Below, piece after piece: positions 11,468 to 43,108 of a stretch of DNA of 64,000 nucleotides. This stretch comes from Escherichia coli (GTDB lineage Bacteria > Pseudomonadota > Gammaproteobacteria > Enterobacterales > Enterobacteriaceae). Made by a program: the position numbers and the translations under genes. The notes below the pieces were generated by a model that was not told where the DNA came from, made no database searches, and worked only from the letters and a program-made list of their open reading frames with translations. Positions within the stretch are counted from its first letter, which is position 1; every line of letters starts with the position of its first letter. The stretch lies in the NCBI RefSeq assembly GCF_002854065.1, contig NZ_CP024147.1; one strand, written 5' to 3'.

Positions 11468-11473
11468 GGTTCA

Positions 11474-11517
11474 AACAGGTGCTGCACACAACCAGACGCG
11501 GCACCTGTTTTATTACC
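11474..11517. terminator. hairpin plus T-run between convergent yhgN and the DprA-like gene (likely bidirectional terminator)
   Basis: Arms aaacaggtgc (11474-11483) and gcacctgttt (11501-11510), followed by ttttatt. Confidence 0.5.
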
Positions 11518-12715
11518 TGAACTGATAATGACCTTCGCCCAATCGGATAACCCTTCCCTCTTCTTCTGCGCGGTTCAGCCACACACTAATTTGTTCGATG
11601 GTTAAACCAGTACAAGACGCCAGCCTTTCAATACTTATCGATTCCTTTGCAAGGATCGCCAGTTCCGCCACAAAGAGTTGATAAAAATCGACAGGCGTAT
11701 ACGCGGGCATTACTGCGTAATTTGCGTCATCTTCATGCAGCGAAAACAGTTCTGGTTGAGCGTTACGGAGTGCTCTGTCATACATCAGCCCAGGAACGTC
11801 TGGCAGTCTGATCGTCACATTCTCAGCCTGTTCAGCACTCCATGACGCCCCATTTTCTACTAATCGTGAATTGGCTGATTGCATATCCTGATTTGGTTTA
11901 ACCTGCACAGGCAGCCACTGATGTTTTAATGCCTCCATCGCCCCGGTTATCGTTCCACCGGTCATTCCCGCACGTACAACCATTGCGCTTTCAGCAAGGC
12001 AATAAATATATTTATTTCGCGCCATCGCATTGCCGACGGTGAAACGTACCTCTGGGTAAAACGGCGAAATCAACACCAGGTTGCCTGCTATAAGCCCTTC
12101 ACGCCATTTCACTAACGTACTCGTTTTTAACAAGCTATCAGCTAATACGCCAACGGCAGTTCCCCCGGCCTCCAGTACCGACGCCATTGCACATTCATCA
12201 ATACCTCGCGCACCACCAGAGATAACGCAAATCCCCTGTTGGGCCAGTTTCGCGGCCAGTTGTTGGGTATAGCGCAAATCGTCAGTCGGAGCATCTCGCG
12301 AGCCAACAATCGCCATACCTTCCGCTTGCAGTAATGCTTTATTCCCGCAGCCAAATAAAACGGGAGGTGCATCCGTTCGCAATCGGTTTTTCAAGCGAAC
12401 GGGATAATCAGCATCTCCGCGGGTTAAGATCCATAAACCGGCGCGTTGCCACTTATCTACCGCCAACGCCAGACTATGACCACGCGCCAGCAAGCCAAGA
12501 ATACGCTCCTGAGAAATACGCGGATCGCTCCAGCCTGTAAGTTTCTCTTGCGGTTGCGGCACCAGAAGCTCGGCGGGACTGATACGTTGGTGCTTCAGCC
12601 ATAATGCAAACTTCCCCCATTCACTATTACTAAGAGGTTTATACTCACTCGCCGCCGCGCGAGAAAAATCGCTGGTTAGCAGGAGAGTTGCTTGTGCATT
12701 GGCTGAAAGATTCAT
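11513..12715 (-). CDS. DprA/Smf-like (DNA-processing protein A family) protein
   Basis: ORF 11513..12808; DprA Rossmann-core signature ...IVGSRDAPTDDLRYTQQLAAKLAQQGICVISGGARGIDECAMASVLEAGGTAVGVLADSL... Start set at ATG 12713-12715, which overlaps the upstream TGA (12715-12717) by 1 nt; alternative start 12808. Confidence 0.75.
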   Translation of the reverse strand: MNLSANAQATLLLTSDFSRAAASEYKPLSNSEWGKFALWLKHQRISPAELLVPQPQEKLTGWSDPRISQERILGLLARGHSLALAVDKWQRAGLWILTRGDADYPVRLKNRLRTDAPPVLFGCGNKALLQAEGMAIVGSRDAPTDDLRYTQQLAAKLAQQGICVISGGARGIDECAMASVLEAGGTAVGVLADSLLKTSTLVKWREGLIAGNLVLISPFYPEVRFTVGNAMARNKYIYCLAESAMVVRAGMTGGTITGAMEALKHQWLPVQVKPNQDMQSANSRLVENGASWSAEQAENVTIRLPDVPGLMYDRALRNAQPELFSLHEDDANYAVMPAYTPVDFYQLFVAELAILAKESISIERLASCTGLTIEQISVWLNRAEEEGRVIRLGEGHYQFR

Positions 12716-14822
12716 CAATTTTTTACCGAGGTAGAAGCAAGGGCAAGAGGATAAACCGTCGGGCAACCTGCCTGGCGTAACAGTGCTGTCAGAACTGTCA
12801 GCGTCCATGCAGAATCCACGATATCGTCAACCAGCAACGCCGGACCAGGCATCAAAGGAGGGGTAATCACAAACGCCCCGTCGAGATTTTGACACTGGTG
12901 GAAACGGTTTTGCTGCATTTTCTGCGGTGGATTGTCCACGACTTTTTCAATGGCATCAATAATAGGTAAGCCAAGTTTCGCCGCCAGTCGCCGGGCAAAA
13001 TCAGGAACCAGGTCGAGGTGCTTTAATGAAGGAACGCAGCATACCCAGGTTGGTTCAGGATGCGGATTCCAGCGTTGGCGAACCATTTCCGCACATGCCT
13101 CCACCAGTTCATCACTGAATCGCCCCGTTTTTTTCTCCTGTGCTACCTGCTTTCCCCACCCGGAATCTCCCCAACGAGAAAGGATTCGCCCCGTAGATCC
13201 TTGTAAAATCGCAGGCAAGTTCCCTTTAAATCCGTATTGCGTAAAAGCCCCAGCTGCCACCTGTTTATTGAGATTTAATGACAGGTCAGCGTGTTTAATA
13301 AATAAGTTTGCCGCATGGAGTAAGCCGCTATCAATGTCGGGCGACAACAACGGATGCTGAAGACAACTGCTACATTTACCACAATGTTCGGCACCTGGCT
13401 CATCGAGTGCGCGGCGCAGAAATTGCATTTTGCACTCCTTGGTCGTGATATAGCTTTCAACGTCTGCCAGCTCACTTTTTCTCTGATTCATCAAATGGTT
13501 AATTCGTTCATGGTCAGGAGAAAAACTGACAATTGTTCTGCGCCATAATTTCTCGGTATACACCACAGGCGATGGATTTTCAGCTACCAATAATTTCAGT
13601 GCTTTTTCTATTTGCCCATAACGGAGATTCGTCCGTTGTTCAATGCCTCGTAAGGTAAGACCGTCATTCACGCTAAGTACGTTGAGTATTTCATGAATTT
13701 GCGCCTCCGCAGGAAAGGCGCTTTCACGGAAGAATTTATGAATAGCACGGTCTTCACTGCCGCAAAGCAGTATGCCAACAGCAGAATCGATACCGCGACC
13801 GGCACGCCCCACCTGTTGGTAGTAACCAACTATCGAACCTGGCATCTGGTAATGAATAACAAACCCCAAATCCGGTTTGTCAAAGCCCATTCCCAGCGCC
13901 GTTGTCGCAACCAGCACTTTAATTTTATTTGCCAGCAACGCCTGCTCCAGATATTCCCTGGCAGTATTAGAATCTTCCGCGCCTTCACAAGTCACGCCGC
14001 TGTAGTAAGCAAATGCACTGATACCATTTTTCCTTAACCACTCGGCGACAAGTTCGGCATCGCGAGTAGTCAGGGTATAAACAATTCCCGATTTGGAAAA
14101 CTGAGGGAAAACTGAGGGATAACCGTTGCTAACCATGCCAGACGGGATGACTGTTCACCTAAGACTAAGGCATCAAGCGCCAAACTTTCGCGAGCCAGCG
14201 TTCCACGCTGAATCACAATGTCACCCAATTGCTGACGGATATCCTCAACGACACGGTTATTCGCTGTCGCGGTTGTACCCAGAACAGGGGTATTCGCAGG
14301 TAGTTGGCGCAAAATATCTAATATACGTCGGTAATCCGGGCGAAAATCGTGGCCCCAATCAGAGATGCAGTGCGCCTCGTCGACCACAAGCAAGCCAATA
14401 TGATCGGCTATAGGATATAAAACCGTTTCGATAAAGTCCTGGTTTGCCAAACGTTCCGGGGAAACCAGCAAGCAATCGACCTCACCTTGCAGCAACTTAT
14501 CGCTAATGCGCTGCCATTCTTCTCTGTTTGTAGAATTCAACGTTTCAGCCGTAATACCTAACCGTTCAGCGGCGGCAACCTGGTTACGCATCAGGGCAAG
14601 CAAAGGAGAGATGATAATTGTCGGGCCAGCGCCGCGATCGCGGAAGATTTTACTGGCGATGAAGTACACAGCACTTTTCCCCCAGCCAGTGCGTTGGACA
14701 ACCAGCAGTTTTCGCCGTTGGTTCACCACCGCGTCTATGGCTTCCCATTGCCCTTCCCTGAAAGTAGCGGTGGTATTTCCTAACATCCGCTGTAAAAGCA
14801 ATTCAGCTGCGTGCTTTTCCAT
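12715..14822 (-). pseudogene. RecQ-like helicase fused to a C-terminal ComF/PRTase-like domain, frameshifted by an 11-bp tandem duplication
   Basis: Two overlapping minus-strand ORFs (14070..14822 and 12715..14136). The N-terminal part carries Walker A QRTGWGKS and DEAH-type VVDEAHCISDWGHDFRPDY; the C-terminal part carries the helicase C-domain (VATTALGMGFDKPDLGFVIHYQMPGSIVGYYQQVGRAGRG), a CxxCxxC cluster and a PRPP-binding-like ALLVDDIVDS segment. Deleting one 11-bp copy in silico joins them into a ~696-codon ORF (...ATVIPQFSKSGIVYTLTTRDAE...). Confidence 0.75.
14097..14118. repeat. perfect 11-bp tandem duplication (aaaactgaggg x2) causing the helicase frameshift
   Basis: Copies at 14097-14107 and 14108-14118 read directly from the sequence. 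Confidence 0.9.
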
Positions 14823-14922
14823 CTTTATCTCCTGCGATCTTTAGGCAGTGATTAGAACGGATTATTTGCAGGTAAATTTGCGAGAGAGATCAAAAAGATG
14901 AAGAGAGGAGAAAAGAGAAATG

Positions 14923-14950
14923 AATTACTGCGAGCAAGCTCGCAGTAATT
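14923..14950. terminator. perfect palindrome (13-bp arms, 2-nt centre) just downstream of gntU; probable gntU terminator, possibly also an operator
   Basis: aattactgcgagc-aa-gctcgcagtaatt; pyrimidine-rich tract follows on the minus strand; partial direct repeat cgcagtaatt at 14954-14963. Confidence 0.55.
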
Positions 14951-14961
14951 TGTCGCAGTAA

Positions 14962-16302
14962 TTAACTCAACAGCTGGAACGCAATCATCCCAACGATGGC
15001 ACCGACAGTGCCGAGGATGGTTTCCATCATGGTCCAGGTTTTCAGCGTTTCGGCTTCGGTCGCGCCGGTAAATTTACCGAACAACCAGAAACCAGCGTCG
15101 TTAACGTGGCTGACAACAATCGAACCACCGGCGATACAAATCGACAGCGCCGCCATTTGCGCACCGGAGTAGTTCAGTTGTTCAATAACCGGCATCACCA
15201 GTCCCACCGCCGTTAAACAGGCAACGGTTGCAGAACCCTGAATGATGCGCACTGCAGCGGCCAGCACGAAGCAGGTGATGGCAATCGGCAGGCCCATGCC
15301 GGTTAACGCTTCGCCCAGTGCCGGACCTACGCCAGAGTCAACCAGCACCTGTTTGAACACGCCGCCCGCACCAATCACCAGCAGAATGATCCCCGCCGGT
15401 TGCAGCGCGTGACCGCAAATATCCATCACTTTGTCTTTTGGCATGCCCTGACGCATTGCCAGGCCATAAATCGCTACCAGACAAGCAACCAGAATCGCGG
15501 TAAACGGATGACCAATAAACTCGAACCATTCGTAAGCGGTAGAGCCTTCCGGCACAAAACGCGCGGCAATGGTTTTCAGCCCCACCAGCACCAGCGGCAG
15601 CAGGATCAGCGACAGGCTGAATCCGAAGGACGGCATTTTGCCTTCGCCGAGATGCGGCTCGCTGATGTCGTCAGGAATATGCAGCTCAACGTAACGGCTG
15701 ATGAAGTTACCCCACAGCGGCCCGGCAATAATCATTCCCGGAATTGCCGCACACAGGCCAATCAGGATCATCCAGCCAAAATCGGCGTTCATCTGCGATG
15801 CCAGCAGCATTGGCGCTGGCCCAGGCACCAGGAACGCCGCCGCGGCCGCCACGCCTGCGAATAATGGGATTACCAGCTTCACCAGGTTCGTACCGGTGTG
15901 GCGCGCCATTGAGAAAGCAACGCTAATCAGCAGAACAATCGCCACTTCAAAGAACAGCGGTAGCGCACAGACCAGCCCCGCAAGGCCGATGGCATAATGC
16001 GCGCGGCTGTGACCGAAGGATTTGAGCATTTTGACGGCAATCTGATCGACTGCGCCGGTTTCATGTAAGATCTTGCCAAACATAGCTCCCAGGGCGACAA
16101 CCACCGCCAGGAAGCCGAGGGTGCCTCCCATCCCTTTTTCCATCGTCGCTGCGATTTTATCGAGCGGCATACCGGAAAAAAGGCCAGCCCCCATGGACAC
16201 CACCATTAAAGCCAGGAAAGCGTGCATACGCGCCTTCATGACTAAAAACAGCAGCAGTAAAACAGACCCTACTGCTGTTAAAACAAGCGTTAATGTAGTC
16301 AC
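14962..16302 (-). CDS. gntU: low-affinity gluconate permease (GntP family)
   Basis: 446-aa polytopic ORF MTTLTLVLTAVGSVLLLLFLVMKARM... Confidence 0.94.
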   Translation of the reverse strand: MTTLTLVLTAVGSVLLLLFLVMKARMHAFLALMVVSMGAGLFSGMPLDKIAATMEKGMGGTLGFLAVVVALGAMFGKILHETGAVDQIAVKMLKSFGHSRAHYAIGLAGLVCALPLFFEVAIVLLISVAFSMARHTGTNLVKLVIPLFAGVAAAAAFLVPGPAPMLLASQMNADFGWMILIGLCAAIPGMIIAGPLWGNFISRYVELHIPDDISEPHLGEGKMPSFGFSLSLILLPLVLVGLKTIAARFVPEGSTAYEWFEFIGHPFTAILVACLVAIYGLAMRQGMPKDKVMDICGHALQPAGIILLVIGAGGVFKQVLVDSGVGPALGEALTGMGLPIAITCFVLAAAVRIIQGSATVACLTAVGLVMPVIEQLNYSGAQMAALSICIAGGSIVVSHVNDAGFWLFGKFTGATEAETLKTWTMMETILGTVGAIVGMIAFQLLS

Positions 16303-28536: not shown

Positions 28537-29283
28537 TCATTGCACCACACTCTGCTTCAACCGTTCATTGGCGGTCTTAATCCATTCCCGGTGGTGTTTT
28601 CTATAATGAGGTCTTGAGCGTTTAGCCGTATCAACTACAGCAACATACTGCTCGTTGGCTTCACGTAACCGACTCATTTTCGCCAACATTTCCGCATAGT
28701 AAATACGCGCCTGCGGGCCGGGGTAATAAGAAATCAATACTTCAAACTCGCTTTCCGCATCAGCGTATTTTTCTTGTGCGGCTAACGTTCTGGCAAATAA
28801 CAAATGCCCGTCTGCCGACTGAAAATCAGGGTTATAACGCATCACATCTTCCAGCGTCTGCTGACAGGCGGCGAACTCCTGAATAGCAAACTGTGCCTGC
28901 GCCAGGCTTAGCATCATTGCCGCTTCATGGGCGAATATCCCGCTTAACGCCTGCTGATAATGGGGAACGGCTTCGTGGTAACGCTCCAGACGCGCCAGCT
29001 CGTTGGCAAGTTGATAGTGGTTTTGATTGGTCTCGGCAATCGCCAGCTCTTCGGTTAATTTGCGCAGGTGACGTTCCGGATTGATTTTGTCCTGCAGGCG
29101 CATCAGAAAGGTACGCCCGTGACGGTCAGCGCCCGTTTCTGGCAGCATCACCATGACAAAATACGCCACGCAACCAATCACCGGAAAACAGAAGATGATA
29201 AAAAACCAATATCGCTCTTGTCCGGTACGGTAAGCGTGGATACAGCAAAGCATTTCAAGCATGGCGACAACGGCATAATGCAT
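28537..29283 (-). CDS. hypothetical membrane-anchored protein (PLDc_N-like hydrophobic N-terminus plus TPR-like helical repeats)
   Basis: 248-aa ORF; N-terminus HAYRTGQERYWFFIIFCFPVIGCVAYFVMVML resembles the N-terminal anchor of phospholipase-D-like proteins; C-terminal helical repeats (YHEAVPHYQQAL...); no K-12 gene recalled. Confidence 0.6.
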   Translation of the reverse strand: MHYAVVAMLEMLCCIHAYRTGQERYWFFIIFCFPVIGCVAYFVMVMLPETGADRHGRTFLMRLQDKINPERHLRKLTEELAIAETNQNHYQLANELARLERYHEAVPHYQQALSGIFAHEAAMMLSLAQAQFAIQEFAACQQTLEDVMRYNPDFQSADGHLLFARTLAAQEKYADAESEFEVLISYYPGPQARIYYAEMLAKMSRLREANEQYVAVVDTAKRSRPHYRKHHREWIKTANERLKQSVVQ

Positions 29284-29401
29284 GGGAGGGAACCTTTCCG
29301 TGGCAAATAAGTGGTCTGGTTTTAATCCTCCCGGTCAGTTGAAACAAGTCTGTATACGGACGAATAACCCGGCAGAACTTAGCTGCCGGGTTATTGATAA
29401 T

Positions 29402-30115
29402 TTACCCGCCTAAATACGCACTTCTCACCGCTTCATTCGCTAGTAGCGCATCACCAGTATCGGAGAGCACTACATGGCCGTTTTCCAGCACGTAGCCGCG
29501 ATCAGCGAGCTTTAGCGCCTGGTTGGCGTTCTGCTCGACGAGGAAGATAGTCATCCCCTGCTCGCGCAGCTGCTCGATGGTGTCGAAAATTTGCTGGATG
29601 ATAATCGGCGCAAGACCGAGCGATGGCTCATCAAGCAACAACAAACGCGGGTTGCTCATCAGCGCGCGACCAATCGCCAGCATCTGCTGTTCACCGCCGG
29701 ACATGGTGCCTGCCCGCTGAACACGGCGCTCATGCAGACGCGGGAACAGTTCATACACCCACTTTATGCGCTCCTGGAACTGGTCGCGTTCGGCAAAGAA
29801 GCCGCCCATCGCCAGGTTCTCTTCCACCGTCATCCGCGAGAAGACGCGACGCCCTTCCGGGACAATCGCTACCGCTTCGCGCATGATTTTCGCCGTCTGC
29901 CAGTCGGTAATGTCTTTATCATCAAACACAATTCGCCCGCTGGTGGCGCGTGGATCGCCGCATAATGTGCCAAGCAAGGTGGTTTTCCCCGCCCCGTTTG
30001 CGCCAATGAGGGTGACAATCTCGCCCTGATTGATATGCAGGCTCACCTCATGCAGCGCCTGGATTTTGCCGTAGTGGGCGCTGACTTTGTCAAAGGACAA
30101 CATGACTTTTTCCAT
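29402..30115 (-). CDS. livF: branched-chain amino acid ABC transporter ATPase
   Basis: ORF 29402..30127; ATG at 30113-30115 gives MEKVMLSFDKVSAHYG; Walker A GANGAGKTT. Confidence 0.94.
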   Translation of the reverse strand: MEKVMLSFDKVSAHYGKIQALHEVSLHINQGEIVTLIGANGAGKTTLLGTLCGDPRATSGRIVFDDKDITDWQTAKIMREAVAIVPEGRRVFSRMTVEENLAMGGFFAERDQFQERIKWVYELFPRLHERRVQRAGTMSGGEQQMLAIGRALMSNPRLLLLDEPSLGLAPIIIQQIFDTIEQLREQGMTIFLVEQNANQALKLADRGYVLENGHVVLSDTGDALLANEAVRSAYLGG

Positions 30116-30116
30116 C

Positions 30117-30884
30117 TTATGCCTCACCTAAATAGGCACGGATCACGTCCGGGTTATTACGGATTTGCTCCGGCGTACCGTTTGCCAGCGGCGTCCCCTG
30201 ATTGACCACGTAAATTCGGTCCGAAATTCCCATCACCAGCTTCATATCGTGTTCAATCAACAAGATAGTGGTGTTGTGATGGTTACGCAGTTCGGCAATC
30301 AGCTCATCCAGCTCTTTGGTTTCTTTTGGGTTAAGACCTGCTGCCGGTTCGTCGAGCATTAAAATCTCCGGCTGCGTCACCATGCAGCGGGCAATCTCCA
30401 GACGGCGCTGGTCACCATAGGCCAGGTTACTCGCCTGACGGTTGGCGTGTTCCAGCAAACCAATACGCTCAAGCCAGGTGGCGGCGCGGTCGAGCGCTTC
30501 GCTCTGGGTGCGACGGAAAGACGGCGTTTTCAACAGGCCTGAGAACAGCCCGGTTTTCAGTTGCTGATGCTGCGCCACCAGCAGGTTTTCAATTACCGTC
30601 ATTTCACGGAACAGACGCACATGCTGGAAGGTACGCACCACGCCCATGCGGGCAATTTGCTGCCCCGGTAAACCTTCCAGATGCTGATCGCGCAGTAAAA
30701 TGGTGCCTCCTGTGGGTTTGTAGAATCCGGTCAGGCAGTTAAAGACCGTGGTTTTTCCGGCACCGTTAGGACCGATTAACGAGACGATCTCCTGCGGGTA
30801 CAATTCAAGATTGACGTTATTCACAGCCAGCAGGCCGCCGAAGCGCATCATCAGGCCGTTAACAGATAATAATGGCTGACTCAT
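30117..30884 (-). CDS. livG: branched-chain amino acid ABC transporter ATPase
   Basis: 255-aa [20 protein letters not shown]...; Walker [10 protein letters not shown]. Confidence 0.95.
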
Positions 30885-43076: not shown

Positions 43077-43108
43077 TTGACTCTGGAGTCGACTCCAGAG
43101 TGTATCCT
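43077..43108 (+). promoter_or_regulatory. zntA promoter with ZntR (MerR-type) operator
   Basis: -35 ttgact (43077-43082), perfect 22-bp palindrome actctggagtcgactccagagt (43080-43101) within a 20-bp spacer, -10 tatcct (43103-43108). Confidence 0.7.

Follow-up and report, generated by a model that had tools for sequence, protein, structure and literature searches.

RqlH and RqlI of ExPEC have been described as the products of a toxin-antitoxin-like two-gene operon (Russell and Mulvey 2015, PMC4670107), in which RqlH toxicity leads to induction of the SOS response and RqlI matters for gut colonization (PMC4670107). That paper holds no account of the rqlHI promoter, of the junction with gntU, or of the palindrome found there, and a literature search returned nothing on the hairpin, on an rqlHI promoter, or on gntU 3′ ends in strains that bear the module. 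The closest counterpart to the hairpin lies in K-12-type genomes such as ATCC 8739 (L002), where the yhgN-gntU spacer measures 56 bp. In the gntU sense, this spacer holds the hairpin CCCGGUAG-loop-CUACCGGG followed by UUCUUUUC, which starts 9 nt past the gntU stop codon and is a different, canonical terminator.

The window, by which we mean the whole 64-kb stretch of DNA that was analyzed, matches E. coli O157:H7. Its yhgN-gntU spacer is 3,494 bp long (11468-14961) and holds two minus-strand genes, psyrT/rqlH and psyrA/rqlI, both of which were matched over their full length by PADLOC (PsyrT, E=0; PsyrA, 7e-202). The homology of ATCC 8739 to the window ends at both stop codons, so that the 56-bp and 3,494-bp alleles swap between these two codons and the difference is no simple insertion. 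The helicase reading frame starts at 14822 on the minus strand; gntU and rqlH are therefore co-oriented, with 139 nt between them. In O157 the helicase gene is annotated as a frameshifted pseudogene, and in other strains it is intact (698 aa). An 11-bp tandem duplication at 14095-14116 (GGAAAACTGAG twice), absent from the intact L003 and L009 alleles, is the sole intragenic length difference among the three and thus explains the frameshift, which divides the O157-type gene into reading frames 14070..14822 and 12715..14136. The features of the locus are collected in Table 1. The hairpin behind gntU, which is shared by several enterobacterial genera, is most likely a terminator of a commonplace kind that had so far gone undescribed, and no insertion scar.

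Table 1. Positions in the window of the features discussed.
Feature	Coordinates	Strand	Basis or remark
psyrA/rqlI, DprA-like antitoxin gene	11513..12808	-	PsyrA match 7e-202
psyrT/rqlH, RecQ-like helicase-PRTase toxin gene, pseudogene here	12715..14822	-	PsyrT match E=0
gntU (gluconate transporter)	14962..16302	-	ORF list; gene whose transcript the hairpin would end
gntU stop codon (TAA)	14962..14964	-	homology with K-12-type genomes ends here
Third 11-mer copy (AATTACTGCGA on gntU-sense strand)	14953..14963	-	direct repeat of the hairpin's 5′ arm
Stem-loop	14923..14950	-	repeat finder, terminator scan, MFE fold, covariation in nine lineages
Core CTGCGAG-N4-CTCGCAG	14928..14945		nine-lineage alignment
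C/U-rich G-free tail (CAUUUCUCUUUUCUCCUCUCUUCAUCUU)	14895..14922	-	directly 3′ of the stem
CRP-site-like TTTGA-N6-TCGCA (TCACA in most lineages)	14879..14894	-	alignment, 65% identity against 34-44% in flanks
-10-like TCTAAT (cTAAAT/cTTAAT in other lineages)	14851..14856	-	alignment; tentative promoter element
Hairpin at the other boundary (AAACAGGTGCTGC / GCGGCACCTGTTT, then TTTATT)	11473..11510		repeat finder

The initial annotation had reported a perfect inverted repeat with 13-bp arms in the gntU-rqlH spacer, and both a reading of the sequence and a repeat finder bear this out: the arms, AATTACTGCGAGC (14923-14935) and GCTCGCAGTAATT (14938-14950), are 13 nt each, 100% complementary, and separated by a gap of 2 nt. 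Inverted repeats with arms of at least 13 nt did not arise in any of 40 first-order Markov simulations, and the window holds only two perfect ones whose 13-nt arms enclose a loop of 8 nt or less (14923-14950 and 29363-29395). The palindrome is therefore not a product of chance. The direct repeat that had been noted alongside it is likewise real and does overlap the gntU stop codon (TTA on the plus strand, 14962-14964), but it is slightly longer than had been claimed, being an 11-mer (TCGCAGTAATT) with direct copies at 14940-14950 and 14953-14963. Exact occurrences of this 11-mer are limited to three positions in the window.

An 81-bp stretch that includes the palindrome is present in 1,650 of 5,426 complete E. 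coli genomes. The helicase gene likewise occurs in 1,650, and both are always single-copy, chromosomal, and at one locus. The 49-mer used as a query is exact in 1,637 of the 1,650 copies and carries one or two mismatches in the other 13; in strain F11, the ExPEC strain studied previously (PMC4670107), it is identical to that of the window. In the remaining genomes the match to the window begins only at the gntU stop codon. By the criterion of the initial annotation, the palindrome would simply be the native gntU terminator if it were present unchanged in strains that lack the module. It is absent from all of the ~3,770 module-less genomes, the K-12-type spacer carrying a different hairpin, and it is therefore not the K-12 'native' terminator. 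The structure, its position, and the fact that it occurs strictly with this allele can be read directly from these genomes. Should the palindrome terminate gntU, then ~30% of complete E. coli genomes, O157:H7, ST131, CFT073, and F11 included, would have a gntU terminator that differs from that of K-12.

The two hairpins nonetheless have much in common. Each is a gntU-sense stem-loop that begins 9-11 nt past the stop codon and leads into a pyrimidine- or U-rich run, and their folding energies in context are comparable. Where the K-12-type hairpin differs is in its unrelated sequence, in a stem that is G/C-rich to the base, and in its better U-tract (UUCUUUUC). Furthermore, it lies between convergent genes and can serve both, whereas the hairpin in the window has a co-oriented operon downstream.

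Three diverged E. coli haplotypes (O157-, B2-, and KSC207-type) carry identical palindromes and repeats. Since the block diverges at the level of the core genome (gntU 97-98%), the lack of any difference in 39 bp is unremarkable, and identity within E. coli was dropped as evidence of constraint; the decisive evidence on this point comes from other genera. Between the O157- and B2-types, the 58 bp before the helicase start (14823-14880) are just 71% identical, the 5′ half of the helicase gene (13501-14822) 92%, rqlI 99%, and the palindrome 100%, and this mosaic divergence points to recombination breakpoints inside the module. In a single genome, HB6 (L004, NZ_CP040305.1; 448-470, corresponding to 14940-14963 of the window), the deletion of exactly one 13-bp repeat unit leaves the palindrome arm overlapping the gntU stop codon. 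This is either a slipped-strand loss or an assembly error. The deletion suggests a slippage-prone direct repeat that can be dispensed with, at least where the toxin gene is already dead. No equivalent perfect 11-mer copy is present in the other genera; the extra 11-mer over the stop codon is an E. coli-specific duplication or homogenization event, and is probably dispensable.

A protein search combined with contig look-ups showed that the nearest relatives of RqlH beyond E. coli and Shigella are 68-73% identical and come from Citrobacter freundii, Silvania, and six further enterobacterial lineages, represented by assemblies and metagenomes. Wherever their contigs reach, the order gntR-gntK-gntU-rqlH-rqlI is found at the same locus, with a gntU-rqlH spacer of ~141 bp. 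Downstream of the module lie yhgN and asd in most relatives; there is no yhgN call before asd in L096, and the L107 and L108 contigs are too short to show the downstream gene. In L104, an AIM24-family gene follows the module instead of yhgN. The locus order shared across genera implies an old arrangement, as opposed to a recent insertion into O157. The PsyrTA/RqlHI module would thus be better regarded as a long-standing allele of the yhgN-gntU spacer, and the main value of this result lies in correct annotation.

The hairpin has been retained along with the gene order. In a nine-lineage alignment it occupies the same position, with a short stop-to-stem distance throughout. The core arms CTGCGAG and CTCGCAG are unchanged in seven of the nine lineages, one arm being altered in each of L101 and L107, and pairwise identity across lineages is 94-97% in the core arms, 77% in the end of gntU, 44% in the loop, and 34-44% in the flanking spacer. 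The five outer pairs of the stem change on both sides together, such that A-U, U-A, G-C, and C-G pairs are all seen, and RNAalifold, given the alignment, arrives at this stem unaided. Over the nine lineages, 96.3% of cells are paired, and 5 of the 12 pairs show double changes (15 cells). The covariation score was reached in none of 500 shuffles, and registers slid along the alignment were only 23-57% paired. By this comparative measure, base pairing has been under selection across genera. Wobble changes, with three of the G-U type against one of the A-C type, are too few to tell which strand or molecule is concerned.

Read in the sense of gntU, the predicted RNA forms a 12-bp stem (AAUUACUGCGAG / CUCGCAGUAAUU) with a CUUG loop and five G-C pairs. 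The stem is contained in the minimum free energy fold, and the hairpin alone has a folding energy of -16.2 kcal/mol (-11 to -22 kcal/mol in the other lineages). It starts 11 nt past the gntU TAA, in a layout that is the same in all nine lineages, and at a distance that, judging by ribosome footprints, would place it just out of reach of a terminating ribosome. The stem leads into CAUUUCUCUUUUCUCC in the gntU sense, and a terminator scan of 14500-15300 recognized the hairpin and its tail as the sole terminator-like site. In every lineage the ~28 nt past the stem are rich in pyrimidines and poor in G, and it is this composition that is kept, not the sequence. Moreover, a terminator is to be expected after the gntU stop codon, because K-12-type genomes have a canonical terminator hairpin there.

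In its G/C core stem, tetraloop, position after the stop codon, and covarying pairing, as well as in an A-rich 5′ flank that is complementary to a U-rich 3′ flank, the hairpin resembles canonical Rho-independent terminators. It departs from them in that its U-tract is interrupted (CAUUUCUCUUUU) and is poor in some lineages, and in that its core is unusually invariant. While the U-tract passes a simple rule (at least five T in 8 nt, starting 0-2 nt past the stem), the first 8 nt of the tail contain only four U in E. coli, and just one or two in Silvania, L101, and L108. The mediocre U-tract therefore counts against a terminator, as does the A/U-rich base of the stem, which is not ideal for an intrinsic one.

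On balance, the initial proposal that the palindrome probably terminates gntU is favored by its anatomy, its position, and the compensatory changes in nine lineages, even though it is not the terminator native to K-12. We consider it reasonably probable that the palindrome serves as a factor-independent gntU terminator, probably an incomplete one that may be assisted by Rho, which would also protect the 3′ end and insulate rqlHI. The palindrome would act at the RNA level, as a stem-loop past the coding part of the gntRKU operon transcript, in the 3′ untranslated end behind gntU. It has a G/C-rich core and an A/U-rich base, with a C/U-rich G-free tract after it, and termination there would be factor-independent and probably incomplete. 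The G-free C/U tract resembles a Rho entry site, so that termination may be partly Rho-dependent, with Rho possibly assisting at the hairpin. The stem would furthermore shield the 3′ end of the gntU mRNA, and termination would keep gluconate-induced transcription out of the rqlHI (psyrTA) toxin-antitoxin/defense operon. We infer actual termination at the hairpin, with insulation as its benefit, from anatomy, position, covariation, and analogy to the K-12 terminator. Were the hairpin leaky, gluconate-induced read-through would in part govern how strongly a genotoxic RecQ-like toxin and phage-defense system is expressed, which would be relevant to gut colonization by ExPEC, where RqlI matters (PMC4670107).

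Two properties of the alignment bear on this conclusion. Firstly, covariation does not settle the matter in favor of a terminator, as a dimeric DNA-binding protein that co-evolved with a palindromic site could yield the same pattern. Secondly, the 7+7 core varies less than the flanking coding ends do (77%), which could reflect sequence-specific recognition and not pairing alone. If the core is indeed read for its sequence, it might terminate or attenuate transcription conditionally, or else bind a protein or an RNA, and in this way tie transcription of the gluconate operon, and perhaps cAMP-CRP by way of the conserved CRP-like motif 45 nt downstream, to expression of PsyrTA/RqlHI. We regard such coupling as unlikely; were it true, it would represent carbon-source control of phage defense, hard-wired at a conserved chromosomal junction. 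The nine-lineage alignment could serve directly in the design of mutants that disrupt the stem or restore its pairing.

The weak U-tract of several lineages and the short stop-to-stem distance in all of them would also suit a conditional attenuator, that is, a leaky, regulated terminator at which gntU transcription, perhaps together with a ribosome that ends translation 11 nt before the stem, determines how much rqlHI is expressed. Such an arrangement is consistent with the placement of gntU and rqlH on the same strand, 139 nt apart, and with a strict scan of 14500-15300 for sigma-70 promoters, which returned none in the gntU-rqlH spacer. In E. coli, moreover, the 3′ arm of the hairpin has two identical 11-mers available as pairing partners, and the duplicated 5′ arm would thereby give an alternative pairing. 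However, the duplicated arm is absent beyond E. coli and deleted in HB6, and conserved promoter-like motifs downstream of the hairpin suggest that rqlHI has an independent promoter. Attenuation thus appears distinctly unlikely.

The promoter-like motifs in question are a CRP-like site, ~45 nt downstream of the hairpin, and a -10-like hexamer ~22 nt further on, both of which are kept across nine lineages in an otherwise unconserved spacer. The CRP-like block was also seen as a small conserved palindrome (columns 97-108 of the RNAalifold alignment), and it has an invariant G, A and T, C at what we take to be the key positions of the CRP consensus. The site would presumably centre near -42.5, as in class II CRP promoters, and the two motifs together may constitute a class II CRP-dependent rqlHI promoter.

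The location of these motifs also bears on the suggestion, made in the initial annotation, that the palindrome is a repressor operator for the adjacent module. Many toxin-antitoxin operons are autoregulated through palindromes, and like the operators of the type II systems relBE, mazEF, and higBA, the palindrome is perfect and lies upstream of a toxin-antitoxin operon. Its 7-bp half-sites are perfectly symmetric, nearly invariant, and ~11 bp apart from centre to centre, as might be expected if the duplex were bound by a dimeric regulator (RqlI, an RqlHI complex, or a host factor) controlling rqlHI. The C-terminus of RqlI also gives a faint HTH_26 match, albeit one below threshold (E=0.03, 15 bits against a cutoff of 22). 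Yet unlike the relBE, mazEF, and higBA operators, the palindrome lies off the promoter: there are no promoter-like hexamers at the palindrome itself, the promoter-like motifs being 45-90 nt downstream, and its centre is ~45 nt upstream of the CRP-like motif and ~80 nt upstream of the -10-like motif. The PsyrTA antitoxin also differs from those of the type II systems in that it is DprA-like and has no recognized DNA-binding domain; in RqlI, Pfam recognizes the DNA_processg_A/SLOG core alone, and matches to the PDB are confined to the DprA core. In addition, the conserved one-strand pyrimidine-rich tail would have no role in an operator.

The operator motif, if such it were, would further be expected in other contexts of the module, but it stays behind. 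More distant psyrT loci were represented by the 80 found among the matches listed, all of them at most 65% identical, of which 78 were scorable. Upstream palindromes were not enriched at these 78 loci, where the best inverted repeats were distributed like those of shuffled controls apart from a few unrelated outliers, and a general PsyrTA operator was rejected on this basis. None of the 80 loci among the matches listed has the core motif, nor does a glmS-context module (66% identity; metagenome contigs L102 and L103), in which an unrelated hairpin follows the glmS stop codon. The layout is hence the same, but the hairpin goes with the upstream gene. In these two contigs the PsyrTA module adjoins DUF883, holin-like, and TfoX_C/deaminase genes, a different integration context. 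As the palindrome is clear of the promoter elements and its motif does not travel with the module, we consider an operator highly doubtful.

Conversely, no instance of the hairpin behind gntU without the module was found, either in a metagenome scan or among the E. coli genomes. The scan, for a gntU stop codon with the G-type hairpin core, returned two loci, both of which belong to known lineages and bear the module. Because the hairpin is never seen without the module, its distribution cannot separate a terminator of gntU from a 5′ boundary element of the module.

As had also been proposed initially, the palindrome and direct repeat might be a scar, whether att-like, a target duplication, or an element end, left by the recombination or insertion that brought in the module. 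Homology with module-less genomes does stop exactly at the gntU stop codon, beside the repeats, and the tandem 11-mers do look like a duplication. However, no 11-mer, direct or inverted repeat is shared between 11468-11520 and 14900-14963, and the absence of matching repeats at the two ends of the module largely refutes a scar. Furthermore, the module consists of two genes, with no integrase, transposase, or recombinase; the 56-bp and 3,494-bp alleles replace each other, contrary to simple insertion; and the arrangement and hairpin are kept across genera with compensatory changes that a neutral scar would not show. The synteny and the unlike module ends together render this origin very improbable.

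Two further identities were considered for the palindrome, and both are close to negligible in probability. Intergenic palindromes of E. coli are often REP elements, which raises the possibility of a dispersed repeat (REP/BIME-like, or a MITE). Yet a permissive BLAST search (E up to 10) of 5,426 genomes with the 49-mer found this locus alone, in 1,650 genomes and never on a plasmid, the two 'places' reported per genome being the two strands of the palindrome. Nor did any Rfam family match, the only hits being sub-threshold noise from snoRNA and miRNA models. A dispersed repeat is refuted by the single locus per genome in these 1,650 genomes and by its absence from the others. The second identity is that of a LexA/SOS box. 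The gammaproteobacterial LexA box has the consensus TACTG(TA)5CAGTA, with CTG-N10-CAG spacing. The outer TACTG...CAGTA of the palindrome are similar to LexA half-sites, and toxic RqlH triggers the SOS response (PMC4670107). However, the spacing in the palindrome is CTG-N12-CAG, and the TA flanks are not conserved in the other lineages; a LexA box was rejected for its wrong spacing.

At the other boundary of the module, the hairpin at 11473-11510 has 13-nt arms that are 92% complementary and lies between the convergent yhgN and rqlI genes. Its sequence is unrelated to that of the palindrome, and it is a probable terminator, substituting on that side for the hairpin of the K-12 spacer.

Several other short features of the window were recorded in passing. 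On the plus strand, a 13-codon reading frame (MNYCEQARSNLSQ) at 14920-14961 runs antisense to the hairpin, with AGGAG 9 nt before its ATG, and is probably fortuitous. The perfect inverted repeat with 13-nt arms at 29363-29395, AATAACCCGGCAG-n7-CTGCCGGGTTATT, is intergenic between the same-strand minus reading frames 28537..29283 and 29402..30127, and is probably a terminator. Lastly, a perfect 22-bp palindrome, with 11-nt arms and no spacer, is found at 43080-43101.
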